Assembly (NCBI GenBank): GCA_963825765.1
Contig: CAWGUU010000018.1
Location: forward strand, 16,401-80,400
DNA length: 64,000 nucleotides
Origin: an uncultured Acidimicrobiia bacterium
Lineage (GTDB): Bacteria; Actinomycetota; Acidimicrobiia; Acidimicrobiales; AC-14
Reading direction: 5' to 3'
Part shown: one piece after another, positions 1 to 60,027 of the stretch
Layout of the letters: every line of letters starts with the position of its first letter
Numbering within the stretch: the first letter of the stretch is position 1
Translations under genes and position numbers: made by a program
Notes under the pieces: model-generated
The model's database searches: none
The model's input: the letters and a program-made list of their open reading frames with translations, nothing else
Told to the model about the DNA's origin: nothing

Positions 1-784
1 CGCCGGCGCCTGGCACCGGGCGGCCGAGGCCTGCCGGGCCCTGGGGTTCGATTATTTCTGCTTCCTCTCCGGGCTCGACTGGATGCCGTCCACGTCGCCC
101 AACCCCCGAGCGTCCGTCTCTGACGAGCTCGATACGGGCGACGACGACGACGCCCGCGCCACCGACGACGACGCCGACGCCGACGACGTCCCGTCGGTGG
201 ACTCCGATGCGGGTGCCGAGGTAACCGCCACCGACGGCTGGGCGACGGGCGTGGCCGGCGGCGACACCCGCTTCCAGGTCTTCGCCCGCCTCTACTCCAC
301 CACCCGCCACCAGGGCGTCACCCTGAAGGCCGACCTCGACGACGACGACCCCCGGGTCCCGACCTGGTCCGACGTCTACCCCGGTGCCAACTGGACCGAG
401 CGGGAGACCTGGGAGATGTACGGGTTCGTGTTCGACGGTCACCCGCACCTGGTCAAGCTCTACCTGCCTGGCGAGTTCGAGGGGTTCCCCCTGCGCAAGG
501 ACTTCCCGCTGCTGTCCCGAGAGGTCAAGCCCTGGCCCGGTCTCGTCGACGTCGAGCCCATGCCCGAGGTGCCCGAACCCGAGGCACCGCCCGAGCCCGC
601 CGCTGAGGCACCGCCCGAGCCTGCCGAGCCCGCAGCGGAGGCACCGCCCGAGCCGACCGGCGAGGCACCGCCCGAGCCTGCCGAGCCCGCAGCGGAGGCA
701 CCGCCCGAGCCGACCGGCGAGGCACCGCCCGAGCCCGCTGCCAAGGCACCGGCCGAGCCCACCGACGAGGGCAGCGCAGGCTGA
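1..784 (+). CDS. nuoC: NADH-quinone oxidoreductase subunit C (NuoC), 5'-partial, with C-terminal Pro/Glu/Ala repeat tail
   Basis: ORF runs off window start; ...ETWEMYGFVFDGHPHLVKLYLPGEFEGFPLRKDFP is a typical NuoC C-terminus; ATGA overlap with nuoD. Confidence 0.85.
   Translation, partial: AGAWHRAAEACRALGFDYFCFLSGLDWMPSTSPNPRASVSDELDTGDDDDARATDDDADADDVPSVDSDAGAEVTATDGWATGVAGGDTRFQVFARLYSTTRHQGVTLKADLDDDDPRVPTWSDVYPGANWTERETWEMYGFVFDGHPHLVKLYLPGEFEGFPLRKDFPLLSREVKPWPGLVDVEPMPEVPEPEAPPEPAAEAPPEPAEPAAEAPPEPTGEAPPEPAEPAAEAPPEPTGEAPPEPAAKAPAEPTDEGSAG
541..760 (+). repeat. In-frame tandem DNA repeats (24/27-63 bp units) encoding PEPAAEAPPEP(T/A)GEAPPEP tail of NuoC
   Basis: near-identical 63-bp blocks gaggcaccgcccgagcctgccgagcccgcagcggaggcaccgcccgagccgaccggc repeated. 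Confidence 0.7.
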
Positions 785-1953
785 TGGCCGTCACCGACAC
801 CCAGAAGCTCACCTACATCGCCGGGCAGGCCGCCGACGCCCGGGTCAACGTCGAGCTGCAGACCGAGGACATGACCCTCAACCTCGGTCCCCAGCACCCC
901 GCCACCCACGGCACGCTCCGCATCGTCGCCAAGCTCGACGGCGAGCAGGTCGTCGAGGCCGAGGTCGTCTGCGGCTACATGCACCGGGGCTACGAGAAGC
1001 TCACCGAGTTCCGCACATATCCCCAGGTCACGACCCTGATCAACCGGATCGACTGGCTCTCCTCGTTCGCCAACGAGGTCCCCTTCATCCTCGCCGCCGA
1101 GGAGCTGATGGGGATCGAGGCGCCGCCTCGGGCCCAGTGGATCCGGACGATCCTCTTCGAGCTGAGCCGCATCGCCAACGTCACCCTCTTCATCGGGGAG
1201 ATGGGCGTGCAGTTGGGCGCCATCACCCCGGTGTTCTTCGCCTTCCGCGACCGCGAGCACGTCCTCAACCTCATCGAGTCGGCCACCGGCGGGCGGTTCC
1301 ACCCGAACTACGACCGCATCGGCGGTCTGAAGGACGACCTGCCGAAGGGCTGGGTGGCGGACACCCACGGGGCGATGACACGCATCAGGACCTACTGCGA
1401 CCAGCTCGAGGACCTCCTCATGGGCAACGCCATCTTCGAGGCCCGGACCCGCGGCGTCGGCGTGATCCCCAAGGAGCTCGGCCTCGCCTACGGGCTGTCC
1501 GGCGCCAACATCAGGGCCAGCGGCGTCGACTGGGACCTGCGGCGGGACGAGAAGTCGCCCCTCGTGTGGAGCGAGCTGGACTGGAAGGTGTGGACCCACC
1601 CCGACGGCGACTCGTTCGCCCGCTACTGGGTCAGGCTGCAGGAGGTGCGCGAGGCCACCAAGATGGTCGACCAGATGCTCGACGGGCTCCCCGCCGGGCC
1701 GATCCAGGCCAAGGTCCCCCGCATCATCAAGGTGCCGGCCGGCGAGGCGTGGGCCCACACCGAGAACCCCCTCGGCGAGATGGGGTACTACGTGGTCAGC
1801 CAGGGCGGCCTGGGCCCGTTCCGGTGCAAGATCCGTTCGGCGTCGTTCCACAACACGTCGATCGTGCCGTGGCTCCTGAAGGGCGTCTACGTGCCCGACA
1901 TCATCACGATCCTCGCCAGCCTGTACTTCATCCTCGGCGACATCGACCGGTAG
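784..1953 (+). CDS. nuoD: NADH-quinone oxidoreductase subunit D (NuoD, 49 kDa)
   Basis: 389 aa; LGPQHPATHGTLRIVAKLDGE..., conserved NuoD motifs. Confidence 0.95.
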   Translation: MAVTDTQKLTYIAGQAADARVNVELQTEDMTLNLGPQHPATHGTLRIVAKLDGEQVVEAEVVCGYMHRGYEKLTEFRTYPQVTTLINRIDWLSSFANEVPFILAAEELMGIEAPPRAQWIRTILFELSRIANVTLFIGEMGVQLGAITPVFFAFRDREHVLNLIESATGGRFHPNYDRIGGLKDDLPKGWVADTHGAMTRIRTYCDQLEDLLMGNAIFEARTRGVGVIPKELGLAYGLSGANIRASGVDWDLRRDEKSPLVWSELDWKVWTHPDGDSFARYWVRLQEVREATKMVDQMLDGLPAGPIQAKVPRIIKVPAGEAWAHTENPLGEMGYYVVSQGGLGPFRCKIRSASFHNTSIVPWLLKGVYVPDIITILASLYFILGDIDR

Positions 1954-2045
1954 AGCGCCCTTCGCCAACCCGTCGAGCGTGCGAAAGGTCGCCATGGCGA
2001 TCCTTCTTGCACGCTCACGGCTCGGAGCCGCGACTCCATGCCGGC

Positions 2046-2273
2046 TCAGGCTTCGGGTTCGGGTGCCTCTTCTTCTTCCGACTCGATCGCGACCTCGTTG
2101 CCTTCGGGACGGGGGATCAGGGACTTGACCTTGTCCTTGACCGGGGCGACCTTGTCGTGGCCCAGCTTGTCGCCGGCGAAGTCGGCCACCTTGTCGACGA
2201 CGTCGTCGATCTTGTCGGCGTTCCCCGCGACCAGGTCTTTCGCCTTGTCGGCCAAGCCGTTCAGGTCAACCAT
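2046..2273 (-). CDS. small MT0933/Rv0909-like antitoxin-family (CsbD-like) protein
   Basis: 75 aa from ATG preceded by GGAGGAG; DKAKDLVAGNADKIDDVVDKVADFAGDKLGHDKV resembles PF14013-type proteins; lies between nuoD and nuoH on opposite strand. Confidence 0.55.
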   Translation of the reverse strand: MVDLNGLADKAKDLVAGNADKIDDVVDKVADFAGDKLGHDKVAPVKDKVKSLIPRPEGNEVAIESEEEEAPEPEA

Positions 2274-2415
2274 GGGCTCCTCCATCACTCGTCGGACACG
2301 CAACTGCGGATTCAGGTGTAGCTACCCAACGCGGATACCGGCCAAGCCTGGCACGCCTACGTTGCGGCAAGGTTGTCACTGTGTGAAGGCGTTCACTAAT
2401 GTCCGACGCTGAGCG

Positions 2416-3438
2416 ATGCTTGCCCTCGAACTTCCCTACTGGCAACTCACCGTCATCAAGACGGTCGTTGTGCTGTCCATCATTCCGGCGGCCGCGATCA
2501 TCCTCGGCTACGTCTTCCTCCTGAAGATGATGGCCCACATGCAGAGCCGGCTGGGCCCCATGGAGCCGGGCGGCTACCACGGCTGGTTCCAGCTGATCGG
2601 CGACGGCATCAAGTTCATCCAGAAGGAGGACATCATCCCGGACGAGGCCGACCGCCGGGTGTTCGCGGTGGCGCCGGTGGTGGTCCTCGTTTCGACGTTC
2701 CTGCTGTACGTGGTGATCCCAGCCGGGCCCGACCTGGTCGTCGAGAACCTCGACGTCGGCATCTTCTACGCCTTGGCGGTGGGCTCGCTGTCGGTCATCG
2801 GCGTGCTCATGGCCGGGTGGGCATCGGCCAACAAGTTCTCCCTGCTGGGCTCCCTGCGAGCCGCCGGCCAGCTCATCGCCTACGAGCTGCCGCTGGTGCT
2901 GGCGGTCGTCGGCGTGGTCATCCAGGCCGAGACCATGAGCCTGCAAGGCATCGTCCACGCCCAGGCGGACGGCTCGATCTTCGGCATCGGCTGGCTCGGC
3001 AACCCGTTCGTCCTCACCCAGATCGTCGGCTTCGTGATCTTCCTCGCCGCCGCCCAGGCCGAGCTCACCCAGACCCCGTTCGACATGCCGGTGGCCGAGT
3101 CCGAGCTGGTGGCCGGCTACATGACCGAGTACTCCGGCTTCCGGTTCCTGTTCTTCTTCATGGCCGAGTTTGGCACCGCCTTCGCGCTGTCGGCCATCGC
3201 CGCCACCCTCTACCTGGGCGGCTGGTACCAGCCGTTCATCACCGGCGACCTCGCCAACCTGGTCGGACCGCTCGTCCTGTTCGCCAAGGTGATGCTCATC
3301 GCCTTCGTGATCTTCTGGGTGAGGTTCACGTTCCCCCGTTTCCGTGAGGACCAGCTCCAGAGCTTCGCCTGGAAGGTCCTCATCCCGATCTCGCTGGTCA
3401 ACATCCTGGCGACCGGCGTTCTGAAAGTGATTTTCTGA
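2416..3438 (+). CDS. nuoH: NADH-quinone oxidoreductase subunit H (NuoH)
   Basis: 340 aa polytopic membrane protein; classic NuoH N-terminus. Confidence 0.95.
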
Positions 3439-3911
3439 TGGCAGGAGCTCGCGGGTTGGCCAAGGGCCTGGGCGTCACGTTCAAGACGATGCTCAAGCCG
3501 GCCGTGACGGTGCAGTACCCCCACGAGAAGGAGGCCCCGACCCCCCGGGCGCGGGGCGTCATCGCCCTCAAGGAGGAGAACTGCACCTCGTGCATGCTGT
3601 GCGCCAGGGAGTGCCCCGACTGGTGCATCTACATCGAGGCCCACAAGGAGAAGCGCCCGCCCCGGCGTGAGGGTGGCAAGCCCCGCACCGTCAACGCCCT
3701 CGAGCGGTTCGACATCGACTACGCCCTCTGCATGTACTGCGGCATCTGCGTGGAGGTGTGCCCGTTCGACGCCCTCTTCTGGAGCCCCGAGTACGAGTAC
3801 TCCGAGGTTCGGATCGCCGACCTTCTCCACGACAAGGAAAAGCTCGGGGAGTGGATGCAGGGTGTCCCCGAGCCCGAGCCGCTCGAGGCCGGCGCGGTCA
3901 AGAAGAAGTAG
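3438..3911 (+). CDS. nuoI: NADH-quinone oxidoreductase subunit I (NuoI, 2x[4Fe-4S])
   Basis: [12 protein letters not shown] and [12 protein letters not shown] ferredoxin motifs; TGATG overlap with nuoH. Confidence 0.95.
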
Positions 3912-3924
3912 GACCGAATCCGTC

Positions 3925-4416
3925 GTGGTCGCCCAGAACATCGCCTTCTACCTGCTGGCCGTGGCCATGGTGGCGGCCGCCTTCCGGCTGGTCACCACCA
4001 AGAACGTCGTGCGGGCCGCCCTCTACCTGGCCGTCGTGCTGGCGGGCGTGGCCGGGCTCTTCATCCTGCTGGCCGCCGAGTTCGTGGCGTGGGCCCAGGT
4101 GCTGGTCTACATCGGTGCCGTCGTCGTGCTGCTCCTGTTCGGGGTCATGCTCACCCGGGCGCCGATCGGCCGGGAGTCCGACCTCGACAACGACCAGAAA
4201 TGGCTGGCGGCCGTGGTGGCGATGTTCCTGGTCGGCGCTCTCGCCGCCGTGCTCGGCGACGCCTTCGGGACCGAGGAGATCGCCTTCGGCGAGATCCAGC
4301 CCACCGCAGCCCTGGCCGACTCGCTCTTCAGCACCTACGTGATCCCCTTCGAGGTCGCGTCCATCCTGCTGCTGGCCGCCCTCGTCGGCGCCGTCGCCCT
4401 GGCCAGAAGGGACTAG
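3925..4416 (+). CDS. nuoJ: NADH-quinone oxidoreductase subunit J (NuoJ)
   Basis: GTG start (VVAQNIAFYLLAV...), hydrophobic; in-frame with listed ORF 3667..4416 whose N-terminal part overlaps nuoI. Confidence 0.85.
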   Translation: MVAQNIAFYLLAVAMVAAAFRLVTTKNVVRAALYLAVVLAGVAGLFILLAAEFVAWAQVLVYIGAVVVLLLFGVMLTRAPIGRESDLDNDQKWLAAVVAMFLVGALAAVLGDAFGTEEIAFGEIQPTAALADSLFSTYVIPFEVASILLLAALVGAVALARRD

Positions 4417-4425
4417 GTACCGGCG

Positions 4426-4725
4426 ATGATGCTCAACCAGTTCCTCTTCCTCGCCGCGATCATCTTCTGCCTCGGTGTCTACGGAGTCCTGGCCCGCAAG
4501 AACGCCGTCCTGGTCCTCATGTCGATCGAGCTCATGCTCAACGCCGTGAACATCAACCTGATCGCCTTCGGCGCCTTCCGCGACAACGTGATCGGTCAGG
4601 TCTTCGCCGTCTTCGTCATCGCCATCGCCGCCGCCGAGGTCGGCGTCGGGCTGGCCATCGTCCTGCTCATCTACCGCAACCGCGCCAACATCGACCTGGA
4701 CCAGGCCGATCTGATGAAGGGCTAG
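4426..4725 (+). CDS. nuoK: NADH-quinone oxidoreductase subunit K (NuoK)
   Basis: 99 aa; ...[17 protein letters not shown]... Confidence 0.95.
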
Positions 4726-4736
4726 GGCGCCGCCCG

Positions 4737-6728
4737 ATGCTGGAGAACGCCTGGCTCATCCCGCTGACCATGGCGGTGTCGTTCGTCCTCATCCTGTTCT
4801 TCGGCAAGCGCATGCCGAAGAAGGGGGCCGAGATCGGCATCCTGGCCATCGGCGCCTGCTTCGTGATGTCGGTGATGACCGTCCTGCAGTGGATCGCGCG
4901 GGAGGGCCACCCGCACCGCGAGGCCGTCGAGGCCCACCTGACGTGGTTCAAGTTCGGGAGCGTCGACCTGGGCGCCGGCATCCACGTCGACGGCCTGACG
5001 GTGATGATGCTCTTCGTCGTCACCTTCATCTCGCTGATGGTGCACATCTATTCGACGGGCTACATGCACGGCGACCGGCGGTACACGTACTTCTTCGCCG
5101 CCCTGTCCCTGTTCACCGCGGCCATGCTCCTGCTGGTCGTCGCCGACAACACCCTCCAGATGCTGATCGGGTGGGAGCTCGTCGGCCTCTGCTCGTTCAT
5201 GCTGATCGGCCACTGGTGGGAGGAGACCGACAACTCCAGCGCCGCCATCAAGGCCTTCATCACCACCCGGATCGGCGACGTCGGCCTGCTGCTCGGCATC
5301 ATCACCCTGTTCTTCGCCGCCGGCCAGAACTTCAACATCGAGCACCTGAACCACGAGGCCCTCAGCGGTGGCATCAGCCACACCCTCCTCGTCGTCGGCG
5401 CCAGCCTCCTGTTCCTCGGGGTCATGGGCAAGAGCGCCCAGTTCCCGCTGCACGTGTGGCTCCCCGACGCCATGGCCGGCCCCACGCCGGTGTCGGCCCT
5501 GATCCACGCCGCCACCATGGTCGTCGCCGGCGTGTACCTGGTGGCCCGGCTGTACGGCGTCTTCTGGGAGGGCTTCTCCATCGCCGCCGGGGGCATCAAC
5601 CCGATGGCCCTGATCGGCGCCATCACGGTGATCGCCTGCGCCGCCCTCGCCTTCGTCCAGGACGACGTCAAGAAGGTGCTGGCCTATTCCACGGTAAGCC
5701 AGCTGGGGTACATGGTCATGGCCCTCGGCGTCGGCGCGTGGACAGCCGGGATCTTCCACCTCTTCACCCACGCCGCCTTCAAGGCCCTGCTCTTCCTCGG
5801 GGCGGGTTGCCTCATCCACGCCGTCCACTCCAACAACATGAGCGACATGGGTGGGCTCCGAAAACACATGCCGACCACGTTCGTCACGTTCATCATCGGC
5901 TCCCTGGCCCTGGCCGGGATGTTCCCGCTCGCCGGCTTCTGGTCGAAGGACGAGATCCTCCTCGGCGCCCTGACCGGCCCCCAGGGCAACGGCTACCCGC
6001 TCATGCTGATCGTCGGGATCGTCGGGGCTTTCATGACCGCCGCCTACATGACCCGCACCTGCTACCTCGTCTTCTTCGGCGAGTACCGGGGCCACGGCGA
6101 GCCCCACGAGGCCCCACCGTCGATGCGGTGGCCCCTGGTCGTCCTCGCCGTCCCGGCGGTGCTGTTCGGCCTGCTCAACGCCCCGGGGCTCGAGAAGTTC
6201 AACCACTGGGTCGCCTTCCACGTGCCGGGCGTGGAGGAGATCGTCGAGCACCACGAGTTCAACCCGTCGCTGGCCCTGATCTCGCTGGCGGTCGTCCTGG
6301 CGGGCATCGGCATCACCTGGCGGGCCTACGCGGCCGACGGCTGGCCGAGGGGGCTCATGGCCCGGAGCTCGTTCCTGGCTACCGCCCACCGCATCCTGGT
6401 GAACAAGTACTACCTCGACGCCCTCTTCATCGACGGCATCATCCGCAAGATCCAGTACCCGATCGCCCGGGCCGCGTATTGGTTCAACCAGCACGTGATC
6501 GACGGCGTGGTGAACGGTGTCGGCATCGGTTCGCGGAAGGTTGCCGGGTTCGTCTACGACATCATCGACCAGAAGGGCGTCGACGGGCTCGTCAACGCCG
6601 CCGGTGCCGGTGCCGAGGAGGGCGGCAAGGTCCTGCGAAAGACGCAGACGGGCCGCGTGCAGCAGTACGCCGCCTTCCTGTTCGGGGCCTCCGCGCTGCT
6701 GGCTGTGGGCCTGGTCTTCCTGACGTGA
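4737..6728 (+). CDS. nuoL: NADH-quinone oxidoreductase subunit L (NuoL)
   Basis: ATG at 4737 (MLENAWLIPL...) in frame with ORF 4089..6728; antiporter-like subunit. Confidence 0.9.
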   Translation: MLENAWLIPLTMAVSFVLILFFGKRMPKKGAEIGILAIGACFVMSVMTVLQWIAREGHPHREAVEAHLTWFKFGSVDLGAGIHVDGLTVMMLFVVTFISLMVHIYSTGYMHGDRRYTYFFAALSLFTAAMLLLVVADNTLQMLIGWELVGLCSFMLIGHWWEETDNSSAAIKAFITTRIGDVGLLLGIITLFFAAGQNFNIEHLNHEALSGGISHTLLVVGASLLFLGVMGKSAQFPLHVWLPDAMAGPTPVSALIHAATMVVAGVYLVARLYGVFWEGFSIAAGGINPMALIGAITVIACAALAFVQDDVKKVLAYSTVSQLGYMVMALGVGAWTAGIFHLFTHAAFKALLFLGAGCLIHAVHSNNMSDMGGLRKHMPTTFVTFIIGSLALAGMFPLAGFWSKDEILLGALTGPQGNGYPLMLIVGIVGAFMTAAYMTRTCYLVFFGEYRGHGEPHEAPPSMRWPLVVLAVPAVLFGLLNAPGLEKFNHWVAFHVPGVEEIVEHHEFNPSLALISLAVVLAGIGITWRAYAADGWPRGLMARSSFLATAHRILVNKYYLDALFIDGIIRKIQYPIARAAYWFNQHVIDGVVNGVGIGSRKVAGFVYDIIDQKGVDGLVNAAGAGAEEGGKVLRKTQTGRVQQYAAFLFGASALLAVGLVFLT

Positions 6729-6751
6729 AACCCCCGAGGAGTCTCTGAGCA

Positions 6752-8284
6752 ATGGTCCTGACCGCAGCCATCTTCCTGCCGATCCTCGGCGTGATACTCC
6801 TCGCCGTCATCCCGCGCTCGCAGGAGCAGGTCCTCAAGGCCGTGGCTCTGCTGGTGGCCCTGGGCACGACCGTCGCCGGGGTCGTCATCCTCAGGGGTTT
6901 CGACTACGGCCAGTCCGAGCGACTCCAGTACGAGGTCAACGAGCGCTGGATCGACGTCATCAACAGCCATTTCCACATCGCCGTCGACGGGATCTCGCTC
7001 CCGCTGCTGATCCTGTCGATGGTCATCACCGTCCTGTGCATCGTCTACTCCTGGGACCACTGGCCCGAGCCCCACAACCCGAAGGCGTTCCTGATCCTGA
7101 TGCTCCTCCTGGAGACGGGGATGAACGGCACCTTCGCCGCCCAGGACCTGATCTTGTTCTTCGTGTTCTTCGAGCTGGTGCTCCTGCCGATGTACTTCAT
7201 GATCGGAGTCTGGGGCGGTCCCAACCGGCAGTACGCAGCCATCAAGTTCTTCCTCTTCACCCTGTTCGGGTCGGCCCTGATGATCCTGAGCTTCCTCGCC
7301 CTCTACTTCCTGGGCGGGAACACTTTCGACATCCCGGAGCTCGTCCGCAACGGGTCGTCGATCGCAAGGGACACGCAGATCCTGATCTTCGCCGGCCTCT
7401 TCATGGGTTTCGCCATCAAGGTGCCGATGTTCCCGTTCCACACCTGGCTGCCCGACGCCCACACCGAGGCGCCGACGGTCGGCTCGGTGATCCTTGCCGC
7501 CGTGCTCCTGAAGCTGGGCGTCTACGGCTTCATCCGGGTGGCGCTCCCGATCCTGCCGGAGGCGGCCCGGGCGTGGGCCCCATGGATCGGGTTGCTGGCG
7601 GTCATCGGCATCATCTACGGCGCCCTCGGGTGCCTGGCGCAGAAGGACATGAAGCGCCTCATCGCCTTCTCGTCGGTGGCGCACATGGGGTTCATCATGC
7701 TGGGCGTCGCCACCCTCACCGACTTCGGGATCAACGCCGCGGTCTTCGGGATGGTGGCCCACGGGCTCATCACCGGGATGCTCTTCTTCATCGCCGGGTC
7801 GGTGCAGGAGCGGTTCGGCACCCGTGAGATCTCCCGCCTCGGCGGGCTGCTGACCCAGGCGCCCCACCTCGGCTGGATCCTCGGGTTCTGCGTCTTCGCC
7901 TCGTTGGGCCTGCCCGGCCTGGCCGGGTTCTGGGGCGAGTTCCCCGCCATCCTCGCCGCCTACCAGCCGGCCGAGGGGCTTCCTGTCGGCGTCTTCCGCG
8001 CCTACATGGCGGTCGCCGCCATCGGCACCGTCTTCGCCGCCGGCTACCTGCTCTGGATGCTGCAGCGGGTGGCGTTCGGCACCGCCAAGGCCGAGTTCGA
8101 GGACAGCCACATCCACGACGTCCACGTCTCCGAGTACATCGCCTGGGTGCCGCTGCTGGTCGGCATCCTGGTCCTGGGCATCTTCCCGGGCCTGCTCTTC
8201 GGCGTCACCAACGACGCCGTCGAGGCCGTCGCCCAGACGACCGGCGCGGTCGTGAACCTGGCCACCGGCGTCGGGCACCCATGA
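6752..8284 (+). CDS. nuoM: NADH-quinone oxidoreductase subunit M (NuoM)
   Basis: 510 aa antiporter-like subunit. Confidence 0.95.
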   Translation: MVLTAAIFLPILGVILLAVIPRSQEQVLKAVALLVALGTTVAGVVILRGFDYGQSERLQYEVNERWIDVINSHFHIAVDGISLPLLILSMVITVLCIVYSWDHWPEPHNPKAFLILMLLLETGMNGTFAAQDLILFFVFFELVLLPMYFMIGVWGGPNRQYAAIKFFLFTLFGSALMILSFLALYFLGGNTFDIPELVRNGSSIARDTQILIFAGLFMGFAIKVPMFPFHTWLPDAHTEAPTVGSVILAAVLLKLGVYGFIRVALPILPEAARAWAPWIGLLAVIGIIYGALGCLAQKDMKRLIAFSSVAHMGFIMLGVATLTDFGINAAVFGMVAHGLITGMLFFIAGSVQERFGTREISRLGGLLTQAPHLGWILGFCVFASLGLPGLAGFWGEFPAILAAYQPAEGLPVGVFRAYMAVAAIGTVFAAGYLLWMLQRVAFGTAKAEFEDSHIHDVHVSEYIAWVPLLVGILVLGIFPGLLFGVTNDAVEAVAQTTGAVVNLATGVGHP

Positions 8285-9795
8285 TCCTGCAGCTGGCCCA
8301 GGCGGTGGTCCCGTTCAAGGCGCCGACGCTCGACTACCACGCGCTCGCCCCGGAGATCGTCCTCAGCGTCGTGCTGGTGGCGGTGCTGCTGGCCGACGTC
8401 CTGCTCGACGACTCCAAGAAATGGGTCATACCCAGCATCGCCAGCTTCGGGCTGCTGGCCACCATGATCCCGATCATCACCCTGGCGCTCTACGGCGACG
8501 ACGTGCGGTCGATGCTGGGTGGCGCCTACGTGGTCGACAACTTCGCCCTGGTGTTCAAGGGGCTGTTCGTCGGCGTCGGCTACGTGGTCCTGCTGATGTC
8601 GACCACCTACGTCGAGGAGGGCGACTACTACGAGGGGGAGTTCTACTTCCTCCTGCTGGCCTCGATCTTCGGCATGGTCGTGATGGGCTCGTCCCGCGAC
8701 CTCATCAGCATCTTCGTGGCCCTGGAGACGCTCTCCATCCCCGCCTACATCCTGGCCGGCTGGCGCAAGCGTGACCTCAAGAGCAACGAGGCGTCGCTGA
8801 AGTACTACCTGCTGGGAGTCCTGGCGTCGGCGGTGATGCTCTACGGCATGTCGCTCGTCTACGGCGCCACCGGCACCACGATCCTCGTGCGCATCGGCGA
8901 GCAGATCGAGGGAAGCGCCACGGCGGTGCCGCTGGCCACCTTCGCCATCCTGTTCATCATCGTCGGCTTCGCCTTCAAGGTCTCGGCCGTCCCGTTCCAC
9001 TTCTGGGCTCCCGACACCTACGAGGGTGCCCCCACGCCGGTCACGGCCTTCCTCTCCGTGGGGTCGAAGACGGCGGGGTTCGTGGCCCTCTTCGAGCTCG
9101 TCTTCATCGGCTTCTTCGGGCGCTCGGAGGTCTGGGCCCCACTGTTCGGAATTCTCGCCGTCCTCACCATGACGGTCGGGAACCTGATCGCGCTGCGCCA
9201 GACCAACATCGTGCGCATGCTGGCCTACTCGTCGATCGCCCAGGCCGGCTACATCCTCGTCCCGTTCGCGGTGGCCGGCACGAGCATGGCCGCGGCCAAG
9301 AGCTCGATGACGGCGGGCGTCGTCTACCTGCTCATCTACGCGGCGATGAACCTCGGCGCCTTCACGATCGTCATGGCCGTCGCCCGCAAGACCCGGTCGG
9401 GGGACATCTCCTCCTACGGCGGGCTGTTCTCCTACGCCCCCGGTCTGGCCGTGCTGATGACGATCTTCCTGTTCTCCCTCGCCGGCATCCCGCCGCTCGC
9501 TGGCGCGTGGGCCAAGATCTTCATCTTCCGGGCCGTGCTCGACGCCGGCACGTCGTGGGCGATCGCCCTCGGAGTCGTCGCCGCGGTGAACTCGGTGATC
9601 GCCCTCTTCTACTACTCGGCGGTGGCCAAGGAGATGTGGATGAGCCCCGTCCCCGAGGGCCAGGAGGCGGCGCCGATCCGGGTGCCGGCGTCGCTGGTGG
9701 CGGCCCTGGGGATCACCTCGTCGATCGTCGTGGTGGTGGGCGTCTACCCCCAGATCCTCGCCCGCTTCGGCGACCTGGCGTCGCTGGTGCGATAG
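8281..9795 (+). CDS. nuoN: NADH-quinone oxidoreductase subunit N (NuoN)
   Basis: 504 aa; ATGA overlap with nuoM. Confidence 0.95.
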   Translation: MILQLAQAVVPFKAPTLDYHALAPEIVLSVVLVAVLLADVLLDDSKKWVIPSIASFGLLATMIPIITLALYGDDVRSMLGGAYVVDNFALVFKGLFVGVGYVVLLMSTTYVEEGDYYEGEFYFLLLASIFGMVVMGSSRDLISIFVALETLSIPAYILAGWRKRDLKSNEASLKYYLLGVLASAVMLYGMSLVYGATGTTILVRIGEQIEGSATAVPLATFAILFIIVGFAFKVSAVPFHFWAPDTYEGAPTPVTAFLSVGSKTAGFVALFELVFIGFFGRSEVWAPLFGILAVLTMTVGNLIALRQTNIVRMLAYSSIAQAGYILVPFAVAGTSMAAAKSSMTAGVVYLLIYAAMNLGAFTIVMAVARKTRSGDISSYGGLFSYAPGLAVLMTIFLFSLAGIPPLAGAWAKIFIFRAVLDAGTSWAIALGVVAAVNSVIALFYYSAVAKEMWMSPVPEGQEAAPIRVPASLVAALGITSSIVVVVGVYPQILARFGDLASLVR

Positions 9796-9861: not shown

Positions 9862-10845
9862 GTGCGCTTCGACCGGGTGGTCGAGCTGGCGTTGTACGAC
9901 GCCGACGGCGGTTTCTACGAGCAGGGTGGCGGCGCCGGTCGTGGCGGCGCCGATTTCATCACCAGTCCCGAGGTGGGGCCACTGTTCGGTACCGTCCTCG
10001 CCGGCGCGCTGGACGGCTGGTGGCGGGAGCTGGGTAAGCCCGACCCGTACGTCGTCGTGGAGGTGGGGGCGGGCACGGGCACGCTGGCGGCCGCGGTCCT
10101 GGCCGCCGCTCCGGACTGCTCGCCGGCCCTGCGCTACATGCCGGTGGAGCGTTCCGCGGCCCTGCGCGCACGGGCCAGGCCGGGGCTGGAGATGCGGGCC
10201 GAGCCGCCACTAGGCCCCTTCGACGGGGTCGTGGTGGCCAACGAGCTTCTCGACAACCTGCCCTTCCGGCTCCTGGAGCGCACGCCCTCGGGTTGGGACG
10301 AGGTGTTCGTCGGCGCCGACCTGGTGGAGGAGCTTCAGCCGGCAGACGATGCAGCGGCGGCCGAGGCCGTGCGGCTGGGGCCGGGCGCAGCCGTCGGCGC
10401 CCGGATCCCCCTCCAGCACCAGGCCCGGGACTGGCTCGTCGACGCCCTGTCGAGGCTTCGCCGGGGCAGGGTGGTGGTCGTCGACTACATGGACACCACG
10501 CCGTCGATGGCCGGCCGCCCGTGGAGCGAATGGGTCCGGACCTACCGCGGCCACGGCCGTGCCGGCGGTCCGCTGGAAGGGCTCGGCACCGCCGACATCA
10601 CCTGCGAGGTGGCGCTCGACCAGCTGGCCGCGGTCCGCGCTCCCGACGAGGACCGCACCCAGGCCGAGTTCCTCGGCGCCCATGGCATCCAACGCCTCGT
10701 CGAGGTGGCCCATGCCGAGTGGCTCGAGCGGGCTGCCATCGGCGACCTCCGGGCCCTGAAGGCCAGGAGCCGGGTGACCGAGGCCGCCGCCCTCACTGAT
10801 CCGTCCGGGCTGGGGGCGTTCAGGGTCCTGGAATGGCGGGTCTGA
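9862..10845 (+). CDS. SAM-dependent methyltransferase, MidA/NDUFAF7-like (DUF185)
   Basis: GTG start; VVEVGAGTGTLAAAVL SAM motif, ...ANELLDNLPF..., MidA family architecture; directly downstream of nuoN. Confidence 0.7.
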   Translation: MRFDRVVELALYDADGGFYEQGGGAGRGGADFITSPEVGPLFGTVLAGALDGWWRELGKPDPYVVVEVGAGTGTLAAAVLAAAPDCSPALRYMPVERSAALRARARPGLEMRAEPPLGPFDGVVVANELLDNLPFRLLERTPSGWDEVFVGADLVEELQPADDAAAAEAVRLGPGAAVGARIPLQHQARDWLVDALSRLRRGRVVVVDYMDTTPSMAGRPWSEWVRTYRGHGRAGGPLEGLGTADITCEVALDQLAAVRAPDEDRTQAEFLGAHGIQRLVEVAHAEWLERAAIGDLRALKARSRVTEAAALTDPSGLGAFRVLEWRV

Positions 10846-10920: not shown

Positions 10921-12882
10921 ATGGCTGACCCGGCGACCATCGAGGCGTACTACCTCGAGGACCGCACCTTCCCGCCCTCCGAGGAGTTCAAGAAGAACGC
11001 CCTCGTCGTCGACAACTCCATGCACGAGGAGGCCGAGACCGACTTCGAGGGCTTCTGGGCCCGGCAGGCGGCCGAGCTCCTCGACTGGGACTCCGAGTGG
11101 GACACCATCCTGGAGTGGGAGCTGCCGTTCGCCAAATGGTTCGTCGGCGGCACGCTGAACGCCTCGGCCAACTGCGTCGACCGCCACGTGGCCGCCGGCA
11201 AGGGCGACAAGGTCGCCTTCCACTGGGAGGGCGAGCCCGGCGACACCCGCACCATCACCTACGCCGACCTGTGCGAGGAGGTGCAGAAGTTCGCCAACGT
11301 CCTGAAGTCGCTGGGCGTGGCCAAGGGTGACAGGGTCAACGTCTACCTGCCGATGATCCCCGAGCTGCCGGTGGCGATGCTGGCCTGCGCCCGGATCGGG
11401 GCGGCCCACTCCGTGGTCTTCGGCGGGTTCTCGTCCGACGCCTTGCGTGACCGGATCAACGACGCCGAGGCCAAGGTGCTGGTGACCGCCGACGGCGGGT
11501 GGCGGCGGGGCAAGGCGGTACCGCTCAAGGACAACGCCGACGCCGCCGTCGAGGGGACGCCCACCATCGAGCACGTGGTGGTGGTCAAGCGCACCGGGGC
11601 CGACGTGGCGTGGGTCGAGGGCCGAGACCAGTGGTACGCCGACCTCATGGAGGGCGCCTCCGCCGACTGCCCGGCCGAGCCGATGGACTCGGAGCAGCTC
11701 CTGTACCTGCTCTACACGTCAGGCACCACGGCCAAGCCCAAGGGCCTCATGCACACCACCGGCGGGTACCTCACCCAGGTCGCCTTCACCCACAAGTACG
11801 TCTTCGACCACCACCCCGACACCGACGTGTACTGGTGCGCGGCCGACATCGGCTGGGTCACCGGCCACAGCTACATCGTCTACGGCCCGCTGGCCAACGG
11901 GGCCACGTCGATCCTGTACGAGGGCAGCCCCGACTTCCCCGAACGTGACCGGTGGTGGTCGATCGTCGAGCGCTACAAGGCGACGATCCTCTACACCGCC
12001 CCCACCGCCATCCGCACGTTCATGAAGTGGGGCGCGGAGTTCCCGGCGGGGCGCGACCTGTCGTCGCTCCGGGTGCTCGGGTCGGTGGGCGAGCCCATCA
12101 ACCCCGAGGCGTGGATGTGGTACTCGGAGAACATCGGCGGCGGTCGTTGCCCGGTGGTCGACACCTGGTGGCAGACCGAGACGGGCGCCATCCTCATCTC
12201 ACCCCTCCCCGGGGCGACGACCACCAAACCGGGTTCGGCCACGTTTCCGCTCCCGGGGATCGCCGCCGAGGTGGTGGACGAGAAGGGCAACTGCGTGGCA
12301 GAGGGGGGTGGGTACCTCACCCTCACCCGGCCCTGGCCGAGCATGCTCCGGGGCATCTACGGCGACCCCGAGCGCTACCACCGGACGTACTGGTCACGCT
12401 TCGAGGGCCGCTACTTCGCCGGCGACGGGGCCAAGATCGACGCCGACGGCTACCTGTGGCTGCTCGGCCGGGTCGACGACGTGATGAACATCTCCGGACA
12501 CCGGATATCGACCGCGGAGGTGGAGTCGGCGCTGGTCCACCACCCCTCGGTGGCGGAGGCGGCGGTCGTCGGGGCCAAGGACGCCACCACCGGCCAGGCC
12601 ATCATCGCCTTCGTCACGCTGAAGGGCGACGTGGAGGCCGACGCCGAGCACGGCGAGGCCCTCCGGCAGCACGTGGCCCAGAAGATCGGCCACATCGCCC
12701 GGCCCAAGACGGTGATCTTCACCGACGACCTGCCCAAGACCCGCAGCGGCAAGATCATGCGCCGGCTTCTCCAGGACGTGGCCGAGGGCCGAGATCTGGG
12801 CGACACGACCACCCTTGCCGACGCCGGCGTGGTGGAGGAGATCAAGAAGCGGGCCAACGCCGGCGCGGGCGATCAGGATTAA
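10921..12882 (+). CDS. acs: acetyl-coenzyme A synthetase
   Basis: 653 aa; [14 protein letters not shown]-binding motif; strong family resemblance. Confidence 0.95.
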
Positions 12883-42595: not shown

Positions 42596-42932
42596 CGGCG
42601 CTGAGACTCCCGCCGTCGCAGTTTCCGTGGCGGGCCTCAAGACATCCTGATCCGGGCGACCCAACTGCCTGGTCGGCGCGGTCCGAGGCCCAGGAGCGCG
42701 CCTCGAGGAGCCGGTACTGAGGGGTGGGCCGCCGACTGCCGCGTGGGAACCCGGCGCTTAACCCGTGGGGACGGTGACCAATGCATCGGGAAAGTCCGGG
42801 TCAACCCGTACATGTGAACCGCCCACGCACGCGCACTGCGTCCCGCTGCGGCCCGTAGGGGCGACGGCGGATCTGGCGGAGTGAGATATTCGAGGAAGGA
42901 GCTATTCGCGTCGGGAGCGTCGCCTGGGTGCT

Positions 42933-43433
42933 GTGACACCCGCCGGTTCCTGCTTGGACGAGCCCCTGCTGGCGAGGCTGGGTCTTCGAGCCGGGGAGGT
43001 CGCTGCCCTCGAGCTGGGTGACGTCGACTGGCGGGCCGGGGAGATCCTGGTGCGGGGCAAGGCACGACGCCAGGACCACCTCCCGCTTCCCGTCGAGGTG
43101 GGCGAGGCGCTGGTGGCCTACCTGCGCGACGGTCGTCCGTGCTGCCAGTGGCGGCAGCTGATCGTCACCCTCTACGCGCCCTTCCGGCCGATCCATCCCA
43201 GTTCCATCACCAACGTCGTCTATCGCGCCTGCCGGCGAGCCGGAATTGCCCGGGTTGGCGGTCACCGTCTGCGCCATGCCCTGGCCACCGAGATGCTGCG
43301 CCAGGGCGGGGACCTGATCGAGATCGCCCAGGTGCTGCGTCATTCCGACCTGGGGACCACCTCCGGCTACGCCAAAGTCGACCGGGTCGCGCTGCTCATA
43401 GTGGCCCAGCCCTGGCCGGGGACGGAGCGATGA
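42933..43433 (+). pseudogene. tyrosine recombinase fragment (catalytic C-terminal domain only; RitA-like, 5'-truncated)
   Basis: [44 protein letters not shown] (R..HxxR..Y); stops in all frames upstream. Confidence 0.6.
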
Positions 43434-44359
43434 GCAGCTTCGCCGACCACGCCCAGGACTACCTGCGACTCCGACGGGCCCTGGGCCACGAACTGGCTGA
43501 GGCCACCCGGCTGCTCCCCCGCTTCGTGGCCCACCTGGACTCGGTCGGGGCCACGACCATCACCGTCGAGATCGCCCTGGCCTGGGTGCGGCGTCCCGAC
43601 GCGGACCCGACGAGCTCCGTGTGGTTCCGGCGCATGACCGTGGTCCGGGGCTTCGCCCGCCACATGTCGGGCATCGACGCCGCCACCGAGGTCCCGCCGC
43701 TCGGGTTGGTGAGCTTCCGGCGGCACTGGCGGCCGCCGTTCATCTACTCCCGCGACGACGTCGTGGCGTTGATGGCCGAGGTCCCCCGGCACACCCCCTC
43801 ACCCCTGCGGGCGGCGACCTTCCAGACCATGATCGGACTGTTGGCGGCCACCGGCATGCGGGTGGGCGAGGCCATCGGCCTGGCCCGTCGCGACGTGGAC
43901 GCGGTCGGGGGAGTGATCACCGTCAGGGCCTCCAAGTTCAACAAGTCCCGGGAGCTGCCACTGGAGCCGACCACGGTGCACGCGCTCGGGGCCTATGCCG
44001 AGGTCCGAGACCGGTTCGTGTCGGCGCCCACCAGCCCCACTTTCTTCCTCTCCCGGGCCGGGACCCCGGTGATCTACACCGACTTCGGAACCAAGTCCCG
44101 CATCCTGGTCGATGCCGCCGGGGTGGGGGCCGACTCGCCGGTGCGGCCCCGTGTCCATGACCTGCGCCATTCGTTCGCGGTCGCCACCCTGGTGCGCTGG
44201 TATCGGGCGGGCGAAGACGTGGGCGCCCTGCTGCCGAGGCTGTCGACCTACTTGGGCCACCTGTCGCCCGGCTACACGTACTGGTATCTGTCGGCTGCCC
44301 CCGAGCTGCTGGCCCTGGCCGCCGGCCGCGTGGAGGCGGCGGAGGCGTCCCGACCGTGA
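43430..44359 (+). CDS. tyrosine recombinase (RitB-like), 309 aa
   Basis: MRVGEAIGLARRDVD, HDLRHSFAVA, LGHLSPGYTYWYL. Confidence 0.75.
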   Translation: MSSFADHAQDYLRLRRALGHELAEATRLLPRFVAHLDSVGATTITVEIALAWVRRPDADPTSSVWFRRMTVVRGFARHMSGIDAATEVPPLGLVSFRRHWRPPFIYSRDDVVALMAEVPRHTPSPLRAATFQTMIGLLAATGMRVGEAIGLARRDVDAVGGVITVRASKFNKSRELPLEPTTVHALGAYAEVRDRFVSAPTSPTFFLSRAGTPVIYTDFGTKSRILVDAAGVGADSPVRPRVHDLRHSFAVATLVRWYRAGEDVGALLPRLSTYLGHLSPGYTYWYLSAAPELLALAAGRVEAAEASRP

Positions 44360-45344
44360 GCCTGCTCGCTCCCACCCTGCAGCTGTTCTTCACCGAGCGG
44401 CTGGCCAAGCAGCGCCAGGCCAGCCCGGCCACGGTGACCTCCTATCGCAACACCTTCCGGCTCCTGCTGCGCTTCGTGCAGGAGACCACCGGCAAGGCCC
44501 CCTCCACCCTGGATTGGGCCGACCTGGACGTCGAGGTGATCTCGGCCTTCCTGGACCACCTCGAGACCGACCGCCACAACAGCGCCCGCAGCCGCAACAC
44601 CCGCCTGGCCGCGCTTCGTTCGCTGTTCCGCTACGCCGCCCTCCGCCACCCAGAGCACGCCCAGCTCATCGCCCAGGTGCTGGCCATCCCCCAGAGCGCT
44701 ACGACAAGACCATCGTGGCGTTCCTCGAGCCCGAGGAGGTCGACGCCCTCTTGGCCGCTCCCGACCTGAGTTGGTGGGAGGGACGGCGCGACCGGGCGCT
44801 GATGGCCCTGGCCGTGCAGACCGGCCTGCGCCTCTCCGAGCTGACGGGGATCCGCTGCGGTGACATCGAGCTCGGCAACGGCGCCCACCTGCGCTGCACC
44901 GGCAAGGGTCGCAAGCAGCGCTGCGTCCCGCTGACGGCCTCGACCGTCGCCGTTCTCCGGGTTTGGCGTCGGGAGCGGGGTGGCCTGCGTGATGATCCGC
45001 TGTTCCCCACAAGAACCGGGCGGCGCCTCAGCGACGATGCCGTCGAGGCCAGGGTCGCGACCCACAAGGCGACGGCCACCACCCGCTGTCCGTCCTTGGC
45101 CACCAAGCGCCTGACGCCCCACGTCCTGCGCCACACCTGCGCCATGGTCCTGCTGCGAGCCGGGGTCGACGTCGCCGTCATCGCCCTCTGGCTCGGGCAC
45201 GCCGACATCCGCTCGACGCAGATCTACCTCCACGCCGACCTGAGCATCAAGGAACGAGCGCTCGCCCGCACCACGCCTGCGACCTCCAAGCCAGGGCGCT
45301 ACCGACCTCCCGACAGCTTGCTGGCGTTCCTCGAGAACCTGTGA
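44356..45344 (+). CDS. tyrosine recombinase (RitC-like), frameshifted in C5 run 44688..44692
   Basis: N-terminal SAM-like domain in one frame, then ...RYDKTIVAFLEPEEVDALL...LRLSELTGIRCGDIEL...HVLRHTCAM...IYLHAD in next frame. Confidence 0.7.
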
Positions 45345-52860: not shown

Positions 52861-53892
52861 CTATGGAAACACCGGGCGCCCGCTACCGTGTCGCAGCGAG
52901 TGGGCCGTGAGCTCGTCGGGCAGCCCGGCCGCCCTGCGGTAGAGCGCGAAACGCGCGCTGAGATGGTGGACGGACATCCGGGCGCCACGCTCCGTGAGCC
53001 ACATGGCCGGGTGGCAGTCCTGTCCGTAGGTGGGGCGGACAACGGTGAGGTACTCGTCGACCACCTCGACCGCCCAAGGCATCACCGTGGCCACATTGCG
53101 GCGGCGTGGCGGGCCACCCCGCATGGCCTTGCCGTAGCGAACGAGCAGCATCCCGTAACGGCCGAGCTCGGGTGCGGCCGCGTTGGTGGAAAAATCCCCG
53201 ATGTCGAGCATCACCGCCTCTCGCCGGCGCAGTCCCCAGGCGTAGATCACCTTGAAGAGGACGGCGTCTCGGAAGGCGGGGAGCCACCCCTTGCGGCCCA
53301 GGCTCCGAATCTTCGCCACCCGCTCGGCGGCGTACTCGTAGAAGGCGATGAGCTCCTCCCGGCTGAACGGGCGTCGCCCGGGACCTCCTTCGTAGTCGGC
53401 CACGTGGTCGGCGGTGTTCCACTCGTGGCATATCTGGACCGGGTGCTCGCCGAAGCGCTCCTCGCATTCTGGGCCCCATCGGTAGCGGGCGTCGGTGACG
53501 TAGGACATGAACAGCCCGAGGACGATCTGGTAGTTGCGGACCGTCGAATGGGCTCGCTTGTCCGACATCAACGAGCTGCTCCACGCCTCGACGTCCTCAG
53601 GGCCCCACCTCCACGGGTAGTCGTTCGTGAAGCGCTGGGACCGCCGGACATGCCCTCGCGGCCGCCGATCGTGGTTGCGGTCAGCAGCCGGCTCTGCTGC
53701 TGGGTGCGCCACCCGGCGAATGGCATCGAACACAGCAGTCTCGGGGTGAAGGAGAATGGCTCCTCGCACGAGGGCCAGATGCGCGGCTCCGGGCGTCTCG
53801 GAACGCTGTCCCATCCACCCCTCCGGCCAGGTCGCTAGATGCAACCGCGTTGCATCCAACGCAACCTTGGAGGAAAAGGCCAGGTAGATCAA
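52861..53892 (-). pseudogene. tyrosine-type site-specific integrase, 3'-truncated (ends 8 codons after HxxR box; catalytic Tyr region absent)
   Basis: RRREAVMLDIGDF and LTAHSLRHG motifs; no continuation in any frame; truncation point abuts kinase start. Confidence 0.6.
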
Positions 53893-54006
53893 GCCCTTCG
53901 TCGGCCTTCCGGGCCTGCTCTCCGTCCAGAGTGGCTTGTTCCCTGGCCTGCGCCGGAGCGTTCTAAGGGTGCCGAATGATGCGCCAGATGCAATTCGGCC
54001 TGCTTC

Positions 54007-54543: not shown

Positions 54544-54616
54544 GCCCCCTTAGCTCAGTCGGTAGAGCACAGCCATGGTAAGGCTGGTGTCGTCGGTTCG
54601 ATTCCGACAGGGGGCT
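54544..54616 (+). tRNA. tRNA-Thr (GGT)
   Basis: acceptor gccccct/agggggc, anticodon loop atGGTaa, T-loop ggttcgattcc. Confidence 0.9.
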
Positions 54617-54677
54617 CCGCGGGGTGCTTGTAAGCTGGGTCGCCCGGCGCGACGGCCGGCAGTCAAGGCTCAACCTT

Positions 54678-59099: not shown

Positions 59100-59833
59100 C
59101 GCACACCAAGAAGGACTCCAAGAAGTACCAGGACGCCGTCCGCCGGTTCGACGAGCAGCTCCTGCACAACCCGGGTGAGGCCGTCGACCTGGTGAAGAGC
59201 CTGGCCTTCGCCAAGTTCGACGAGACCGTCGAGCTGGCGGTGCGCCTGGGCGTCGACCCCCGCAAGGCCGACCAGATCGTGCGAGGCACCGTCGGTCTGC
59301 CGGCAGGTACGGGCAAGATGGTCCGGGTCGTGGTATTCGCCGCCGGCGAGGCCGCCAATGACGCCCGGGAGGCGGGTGCCGACGTCGTGGGCGCCGACGA
59401 CCTGGTCGCTCGGGTGCAGGGCGGGTTCCTCGACTTCGACGTTGCCATCGCCACGCCTGACCTCATGGGACAGGTCGGCAAGCTGGGCCGGGTCCTCGGC
59501 CCCCGGGGCCTCATGCCGAACCCCAAGACCGGCACCGTCACCATGGAAGTCGGCCGGGCGGTCAAGGAGTTCAAGGGCGGTCGGGTGGAGTACCGCACCG
59601 ACCGCTACGGAAACATCCACGTCCCCATCGGCAAGGTGAGCTTCGACCGCCGTGCCCTGCTGGAGAACCTGCGGGCCGTCATCGACGAGCTCAACCGGGC
59701 CAAGCCGGCTTCCTCCAAGGGCAGGTACATGCGCGGGGTCACCATCTCGTCCACCATGGGTCCGGGCGTGAAGATGGACCCCAGCGCGGCGCGTGCGCTC
59801 GAGGACGACCTGGCTGCGGCTGGCCCGTCGTAG
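59096..59833 (+). CDS. rplA: 50S ribosomal protein L1
   Basis: ATGA overlap with rplK; ...[24 protein letters not shown]...[19 protein letters not shown]. Confidence 0.95.
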
Positions 59834-60027
59834 CCGCGTAGCGTTCCAACACCTGGCTGTTGGAGCCCCGAATCGCCTCCAACACCCCCGGGAATCCGGC
59901 GGAAAGCTTCCTGTCAGCCTCCTCCCCGAAGTAGTCTGCCGCCGCGAGCTGGGCGTTCCGCGTGGCGTGGCGGTGTGCTCCCGGTTGAGCGGTCGAAGTG
60001 CACAGCGCCAACGAAGCGAGGCTGACG

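Follow-up and report, generated by a model that had tools for sequence, protein, structure and literature searches.

The window analysed in this work, a stretch of 64,000 nucleotides (64 kb, G+C ~70%) from an uncultured Acidimicrobiia bacterium (contig CAWGUU010000018.1, positions 16,401 to 80,400), begins inside a run of nuo genes, which code for the subunits of complex I. The best explanation of our results as a whole, and one that we hold to be somewhat probable, is that this run and the gene after it make up the last ten of the 12 genes of an operon conserved in Acidimicrobiia, encoding a second complex I-like enzyme devoid of the N-module, that is, of NuoE, NuoF and NuoG. We refer to this operon and its product as nuo2 and Nuo2, and to the canonical 14-subunit complex I of the same organisms as nuo1 and Nuo1. 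Sequence comparison makes it very probable that the window holds a nuo2-type operon for 11 subunits, which would stand beside a canonical one, a tandem picture drawn from relatives. An earlier note on this DNA, made from its letters alone, had read the gene order as nuoC-nuoD-(small reverse-strand gene)-nuoH-I-J-K-L-M-N with tight junctions, and the Pfam calls bear this out:

2..784, forward strand: nuoC2, the 30-kDa subunit (PF00329, E = 3e-31), with its 5' end off the start of the window
784..1953, forward strand: nuoD2, the 49-kDa subunit (PF00346, E = 3e-75)
2046..2303, reverse strand: small MT0933-like gene of 75-85 amino acids (PF14013, E = 8e-11)
2373..2402, forward strand: promoter-like element TTGTCA-18 nt-TAATGT, 13 nt 5' of the nuoH2 start
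2416..3438, forward strand: nuoH2, the quinone-tunnel subunit (PF00146, E = 7.5e-100)
3438..3911, forward strand: nuoI2 (Fer4 family matches), with two CxxCxxCxxxCP motifs (clusters N6a/N6b)
3922..4416, forward strand: nuoJ2, with a GTG start (PF00499, E = 1.7e-36); the tyrosine of transmembrane helix (TM) 3 (LVYIGA) is kept
4426..4725, forward strand: nuoK2 (PF00420, E = 2.4e-29); both conserved membrane glutamates are kept
4737..6728, forward strand: nuoL2, antiporter-like subunit with a long C-terminal extension (PF00361 and PF00662; motifs GWELVG, GKSAQFPLHVWLPDAM, WSKDE)
6752..8284, forward strand: nuoM2, antiporter-like subunit (PF00361, E = 1.9e-77; motifs LLETG, IKVPMFPFHTWLPDAH, WGEF)
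8281..9795, forward strand: nuoN2, antiporter-like subunit (PF00361, E = 3.8e-70; motifs ALETLS, FKVSAVPFHFWAPD, WAK)
9862..10845, forward strand: gene 12 of the operon, for an S-adenosylmethionine-dependent (arginine) methyltransferase of the NDUFAF7/MidA type (PF02636)

Apart from the junction between nuoD2 and nuoH2, the genes are closely packed: C/D and H/I overlap by 1 nt, M/N by 4 nt, and the remaining spacers measure 10-24 nt. nuoJ2 (start at 3922, frame 1) and nuoL2 (start at 4737, frame 3) are not the longest open reading frames (ORFs) listed there. Reading the motifs of the translations, we found the membrane-arm residues kept (the glutamate pair of NuoK, the tyrosine of NuoJ and, in NuoL, NuoM and NuoN, the glutamate of TM5, the lysine of TM7 and the lysine or glutamate of TM12). 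NuoB2 of the closest relative (locus L001) contains CCAIE, SCANCGG and GCPPRPE, meaning that the iron-sulphur ligands of cluster N2 are kept too. The ratio of nonsynonymous to synonymous substitution rates (dN/dS), obtained for six genes between the window and two relatives, lies between 0.12 and 0.30, which indicates that the operon is functional and under purifying selection. NuoC2 has an enlarged acidic loop, of 62 residues in the window, with a median of 33 residues in NuoC2 (n=90) versus 15 in NuoC1 (n=35). This loop contains a short repeat (141-188), and a 57-bp tandem repeat further on (581-770, 2.7-3.5 copies, matches up to 95%) gives rise to a PEAPPEP-rich C-terminal tail of 80 residues, whose length is 144 residues in L001 and only 15-35 in other relatives.

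The absence of nuoE/F/G from the operon, also claimed in the earlier note, holds across the 64 kb. No NuoE, NuoF or NuoG was detected in the window by tblastn with Pfam-verified queries, and no NuoF motif was found in the window or around nuoD2 in 80 orthologous loci, while canonical operons, serving as control, were positive. Matches to a regular expression for the NuoE cluster motif near nuoD2 loci were dropped, all being out-of-frame noise. We then have to look at relatives to understand the operon as a whole, and for this the proteins of the window were mapped onto 80 genome loci, then onto 80 metagenome loci. The closest relatives by NuoD are metagenome-assembled genomes of Acidimicrobiia/Acidimicrobiales, with a top identity of 92%, and the order A2-B2-C2-D2-H2-I2-J2-K2-L2-M2-N2 is found in every locus of sufficient length. 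nuoA and nuoB had been guessed to lie upstream of the window, and this is supported by the presence of nuoA2-nuoB2 directly 5' of nuoC2 in 80/80 orthologous genome loci.

Further upstream, in L001 and many other relatives, a paralogous nuo set with 35-47% identity ends 0.2-7 kb 5' of nuoA2, on the same strand. The tail of a canonical operon is present there in 34/51 genome loci that have at least 3 kb 5' of nuoA2, the remainder showing unrelated genes, and in L012 and L082 the gene directly before the upstream nuoH is a NuoG according to Pfam. A metagenome scan anchored on this upstream NuoH yielded whole operons that include E, F and G. The entire tandem, A1-B1-C1-D1-E1-F1-G1-H1-I-J-K-L1-M1-N1 followed by A2-B2-C2-D2-H2, can be read on one strand in L098, L109, L111, L114 and L121. 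The E/F/G copies found in relatives belong only to the neighbouring canonical operon, and what lies between nuoN1 and nuoA2 differs among loci (DUF222, PhyH, a Na/H exchanger, STAS, DegV). The earlier note had offered two ways out, a second enzyme independent of NADH or EFG encoded elsewhere. Both are right in that most relatives carry a canonical operon next to nuo2, whose product may be independent of NADH. One locus stands apart, L083 (1-10001), with only fragments of nuoE and nuoF before nuoG and transporter-like genes on the reverse strand 5' of them; it probably reflects a rearrangement at this place or else a chimeric contig, and we did not use it as evidence.

An operon with this layout could also be the product of artefact or decay, be it a misassembly between nuoD and nuoH, a single operon rearranged so that EFG moved away, or a cluster of genes turning into pseudogenes. 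What gives this idea some footing is the unusual gap of ~462 bp (462-466 bp) between nuoD2 and nuoH2 with its antisense gene, the only wide gap in the operon. Yet nuoH2 directly follows nuoD2 in 87/87 independent loci with both genes; the spacer has a median length of 18 bp and reaches at most 191 bp, the window being the sole outlier. Aligning the spacer with those of L001, L003, L004 and L006 reveals collinear flanks and a clean insertion of ~350 bp that holds the reverse gene, for which no homologue was found among the 160 related loci (80 genome and 80 metagenome). From these alignments, the reverse gene is best read as a recent insertion private to this genome. Because of the adjacency of D and H in the 87 loci and of the collinear insertion flanks, we also take the nuoD-nuoH junction to be ancestral to the operon, with no assembly break, which disposes of the misassembly that the earlier note had considered. 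Its other concern, a single operon that had been rearranged, does not match an upstream operon that is complete in itself and only ~40% identical to nuo2. Also, the ORFs are all intact, with the dN/dS values given above. Artefact or decay is thus already refuted by the data, and its probability is negligible.

The promoter-like element of the same gap has a core, GTGAAG...TCACTA[A/G]TGTCC, that the spacer alignment shows to be kept in the closest relatives. A scan of the nuoD-nuoH gap for the sigma-70 consensus and for terminators gave no call, this element included; under an actinobacterial TANNNT reading of the -10 box, the block at 2373-2402 is a possible internal promoter. Insertions were also seen between nuoH2 and nuoI2, of 5 kb in L030 (4454-9634) and 3 kb in L078 (12299-15298), and the operon evidently tolerates interruption at more than one junction.

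Nuo2 is not a recent copy of its neighbour. A recent duplication of nuo1 minus EFG was rejected on the ranking of scores against solved structures and on the NuoD tree. NuoD1 matches the Mycobacterium smegmatis structure with 452 bits, that of Thermus thermophilus with 449 and cyanobacterial NdhH with 354, and NuoH1 follows the same order (374 bits for M. smegmatis, 291 for T. thermophilus, 225 for cyanobacterial NdhA). NuoD2 of the window ranks T. thermophilus first (326 bits), then cyanobacterial NdhH (311) and M. smegmatis (244), and its NuoH2 ranks cyanobacterial NdhA first (212 bits), then M. smegmatis (192) and T. thermophilus (189), bacterial NuoH as a whole giving 189-198. The tree, built by neighbour-joining from 150 database representatives plus local sequences with 91 bootstraps, has a backbone without resolution; the window NuoD2 falls in a clade of its own in 65/91 bootstraps, and is sister to NuoD1 in 0/91 and to NdhH alone in 0/91. 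We call this clade W-type, or Trp-type, after a substitution described below. On this evidence, Nuo2 is an old lineage, separate from the canonical enzyme. A kinship of NuoD and NuoH with the 11-subunit enzymes NDH-1 and Fpo, suggested in the earlier note, turns out to be only loose: the scores of NuoH2, with NdhA on top, point that way, but NuoD2 has its own clade. We also rejected the assignment of NuoD2 to the NiFe-hydrogenase type because of the score ranking (326 bits for Nqo4 versus 152 for MbhL of MBH and 139 for HycE of FHL) and because the cysteine ligands are missing, its C-terminus reading LGDIDR with no DPCxxC motif.

Members of the W-type are also found outside operons. Lone Trp-type nuoD genes, 38-50% identical to the window NuoD2, were seen in Dermatophilaceae and further Actinomycetales; they have no other nuo gene close to them and lie in a folate/ftsH/nadB neighbourhood (L161, 10001-11143; L162, 10001-11143; L164, 10001-11182; L165, 1568-2770). 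Outside the actinobacterial Trp clade, fused NuoC/D proteins of Methanofastidiosia and Methanonatronarchaeales archaea (P0027 and P0045) carry a tryptophan at the same position, and the change may have arisen more than once.

The substitution in question concerns the quinone site. Using T. thermophilus numbering and a HMMER alignment to Nqo4 and NdhH, we compared the columns of 89 NuoD2 and 36 NuoD1 sequences. Tyr87 is replaced by tryptophan in 89/89 NuoD2 (W91 in the window, codon 1054-1056) and Asp139 by glutamine in 86/89 (Q143, 1210-1212), while His38 is kept (H42); all three residues are kept in 36/36 NuoD1. Only five positions are conserved in NuoD1, Thermus and NdhH yet consistently different in NuoD2, namely S36A, V40T, L62M, Y87W and D139Q, and all of them fall in the quinone-head loops. 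An acid, Asp or Glu, occupies position 135 in 86 of the 89 NuoD2, with E139 of the window at the place of Thr135, and related Trp-type proteins have either an acid at 135 together with Gln139, or Ala/Ser at 135 together with Glu139. This either-or pattern suggests that, as far as sequence can tell, the carboxylate was moved from 139 to 135 rather than lost. Position 66, two residues past the methylatable arginine discussed below, is a clade-specific tyrosine in 89/89 NuoD2 (Y70 in the window) and a methionine in NuoD1.

The neighbouring subunit has changed too. When 73 NuoH2 sequences are compared with 84 NuoH1 plus NdhA, four charges that NuoH1 and NdhA keep are neutralised in NuoH2, each in 73/73. 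Two of them lie in the ERK motif, in which Glu becomes Leu and Arg becomes Phe, Leu or Met (LLK in the window). The other two are the Arg of the AExNR-PFD motif, replaced by Gln, and the first Glu of the xEAExEL motif, replaced by Ile, Val or Leu (Val in the window). These changes are to be read against a literature in which the quinone-site tyrosine is 'strictly conserved' and binds the quinone head (reviews, PMC8119997). A genome-wide survey of residues describes Y87, H38 and D139 as a signature of quinone reactivity, and in it the word tryptophan is absent; its stated exception is the Archaean Fpo, with Tyr87 present and H38 and D139 absent (PMC4758237). We found no published report of a natural Tyr87-to-Trp variant, although our coverage of the literature is incomplete and novelty is not proven by this.

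The other peculiarity of the operon is its last gene. The match of its product to PF02636 reaches 109.9 bits (cut-off 23.3), with weaker matches to the structures 4f3n (COG1565), 1zkd and 5ztz, the latter a Dictyostelium homologue of NDUFAF7. A PF02636 gene lies within 600 bp 3' of nuoN2 in 38 of the 48 loci with room for it and is the only conserved extra gene; lone NuoD2-type genes have one in their vicinity as well, immediately upstream in L165 and at a distance of 2 kb in L164. NDUFAF7 is responsible in mammals for the symmetric dimethylation of Arg85 of the 49-kDa subunit NDUFS2, in an HRGxEK motif by cluster N2, and the same modification is present in Paracoccus denitrificans but not in Escherichia coli (PMC3829151, PMC3750175). 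The equivalent arginine is found in 89/89 NuoD2 (R68 in the window, codon 985-987, motif HRGYEK), whereas the site is a threonine in 36/36 NuoD1, and likewise in Thermus. It is likely that the methyltransferase acts on NuoD2, because of this repeated pairing, both with the operon and with the lone NuoD2 genes. By analogy with mitochondrial NDUFAF7, the operon enzyme would dimethylate Arg68 of NuoD2 by cluster N2.

We propose that Nuo2 would work as a proton-pumping (mena)quinone reductase that receives its electrons at NuoI from a soluble carrier of low potential, instead of from NADH via a flavoprotein of its own. Its quinone site would have an altered chemistry, given by Trp87, the carboxylate moved from 139 to 135, Tyr70 and the four neutralised charges of NuoH2. 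The donor has nearly an even chance of being ferredoxin-like, a choice favoured because of the analogy with cyanobacterial NDH-1, with Fpo-like enzymes and with a proposal made for Desulfitobacterium. Several observations weigh against this scheme. No gene for a ferredoxin, a flavodoxin, an FpoF-like protein or a hydrogenase is linked to the operon, be it in the window or in relatives. With Tyr87 and four NuoH charges lost, quinone reduction or coupling could be impaired or proceed differently. As the window begins inside nuoC2, the tandem layout of this particular genome is that of its relatives by extension, and since nuo2 often comes immediately after a full operon with NuoEFG, the two could share an N-module.

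Such sharing is the main rival explanation: NuoE/F/G of the neighbouring canonical operon would dock on the Q-module of Nuo2, which would turn it into another NADH:quinone oxidoreductase, distinct in its quinone site or in its pumping. The presence of nuo1, with E/F/G, directly upstream on the same strand in those 34 of 51 relatives fits this idea, and Spero et al. (2015) mention a genome in which nuoEFG is present once and the other genes twice, and which 'could potentially' give two isozymes. However, the Q-module subunits of the two enzymes are ~40% identical and come from different deep lineages, so that Nuo2 has probably not kept the surface on which NuoG docks, and the acidic loop is enlarged in NuoC2, not in NuoC1. 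Moreover, at least 13 genome loci have nuo2 but show no nuo1 over more than 8 kb of upstream sequence, and W-type NuoD genes persist with no nuo genes nearby. We consider N-module sharing unlikely. Alternatively, just as FpoF docks on Fpo, Nuo2 could accept a donor module of its own whose genes lie elsewhere, be it an FpoF-like F420H2 dehydrogenase, a hydrogenase or a module of the formate-dehydrogenase type. Archaeal Fpo and the complex I of Campylobacter set the precedent, and the 11-subunit core has been proposed to be a docking platform for multiple donors (Moparthi & Hagerhall). But neither the window nor the 80 orthologous loci have such a gene linked to nuo2, the methyltransferase being the sole conserved extra gene; the earlier note had pointed to the upstream region as a place to look for a donor module, and in the relatives only unrelated genes that vary from locus to locus lie between nuoN1 and nuoA2. 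This makes a dedicated module quite unlikely, and we retain the entry of electrons at NuoI from a soluble carrier as the preferred proposal.

The gene order itself is already known. Complex I enzymes of 11 subunits are widespread, with a report on Actinobacteria dating from 2011 (PMC3144371), and the arrangement has been published for a sister lineage, Ca. Actinomarina, where NDUFAF7 comes after an 11-subunit operon and a 14-subunit operon lies nearby (Bulzu et al. 2021, bioRxiv 10.1101/2021.02.01.429150). Our search recovered a Ca. Actinomarina locus (L163) with the same order, nuoA,B,C,D,H,I,J,K,L,M,N and PF02636, and a NuoD of the Trp type, 56% identical to that of the window. It differs in its surroundings, with a heliorhodopsin and an iron ABC transporter upstream and HtpX, rhodanese and PfkB downstream, whereas the window has an acetyl-CoA synthetase downstream and a reverse gene between nuoD and nuoH. 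Its NuoD also has the acid (Glu) at 139, where the clade of the window combines Gln139 with Asp/Glu135. The only parts that may be new are thus the pattern of the quinone site and the split of the arginine and its methyltransferase between two enzymes.

Other enzymes described so far resemble Nuo2 only in part. The NUO11 considered 'ancestral' (Moparthi & Hagerhall 2011; Degli Esposti 2015), known from Bacillus cereus, Chlorobium and Desulfitobacterium hafniense, shares with it a contiguous nuoABCDHIJKLMN without E/F/G and complete Q- and P-modules. However, the published descriptions take Tyr87, His38 and Asp139 as the signature of quinone reactivity, Archaean Fpo excepted, whereas the clade of the window has Trp87 and Gln139, and Nuo2 coexists with a canonical enzyme in aerobic heterotrophs, instead of being an anaerobe's only complex I. 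Streptomyces has a full nuoA-N plus a second set (nuoA2, B2, D2, H2-N2) without N-module (PMC3765725); compared by description, this set has no nuoC2 and its nuoD2 lies apart, while C2 and D2 are inside the operon in the clade of the window. NDH-1 of cyanobacteria and chloroplasts also has 11 core subunits and no N-module, gives the top match for NuoH2 (NdhA) and the second one for NuoD2 (NdhH), and, as it takes electrons from ferredoxin, is the model for the mechanism proposed here. Yet NdhH keeps Tyr87 and Asp139, and does not pair with NuoD2 in the tree. The operon of the window has no extra small genes, those of the NdhS/V/O type not being seen, although no dedicated search was made for them. 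And the acceptor of NDH-1 is plastoquinone, presumably menaquinone in Nuo2. As for archaeal Fpo, neither FpoF nor FpoO is linked to nuo2 in the window or in its relatives, but FpoF need not be linked. The HRGxEK arginine by N2 and the PF02636 methyltransferase recall mitochondrial and alpha-proteobacterial complex I with NDUFAF7; there, however, the methyltransferase serves the canonical enzyme, whereas here it is tied to the one without N-module, NuoD1 having a threonine. Compared with the canonical 14-subunit complex I, Nuo2 has His38 but neither a NuoE/F/G of its own nor Tyr87 and Asp139.

These results mean that abundant Actinobacteria of soil, freshwater and sea keep two complex I enzymes side by side, and that the second one breaks a rule supposed to be universal, that of the quinone-binding tyrosine, and yet is the one linked to NDUFAF7. 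The system offers handles on how a complex I without N-module is fed in aerobic bacteria, on what the Tyr/His/Asp triad is needed for, and on the role of the arginine methylation. We can go one step further, as a tentative and somewhat doubtful possibility suggested by the sequences, and consider the Nuo2 clade (the Acidimicrobiia operons together with the lone NuoD2-methyltransferase pairs of other Actinobacteria) as a functionally distinct class of complex I-like enzymes, whose quinone pocket would have been rebuilt as a set and whose assembly or activity would depend on NDUFAF7. If true, these enzymes would use a different acceptor, or a proton chemistry or directionality different from that of known complex I, and would provide a genetically tractable bacterial system to find out the purpose of arginine dimethylation by cluster N2.

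Downstream of the methyltransferase gene, the window encodes an acetyl-CoA synthetase (10921-12882) that is likewise found in L001, L014, L022, L035, L057 and L072, and is a moderately conserved neighbour of the operon. The remainder of the window consists of housekeeping genes, and Rfam finds in it only four tRNAs. Fragments of integrase genes lie at 42885-44769, and an integrase-like gene on the reverse strand (52861-54006) lies beside a GNAT gene and a tRNA-Thr (54544-54618); the stretch between both, in which G+C dips at 46-48 kb, encodes a GAF/PAS histidine kinase, a LuxR-type regulator and a STAS protein. This part of the window may be an integrated element. Close to the end of the window (59739-63992) G+C rises to 0.76-0.79 with a positive GC skew, and the longest ORF, of 1417 amino acids on the reverse strand, is of low complexity, rich in proline and alanine and without Pfam match; it may be the shadow of a glycine-rich gene on the forward strand.

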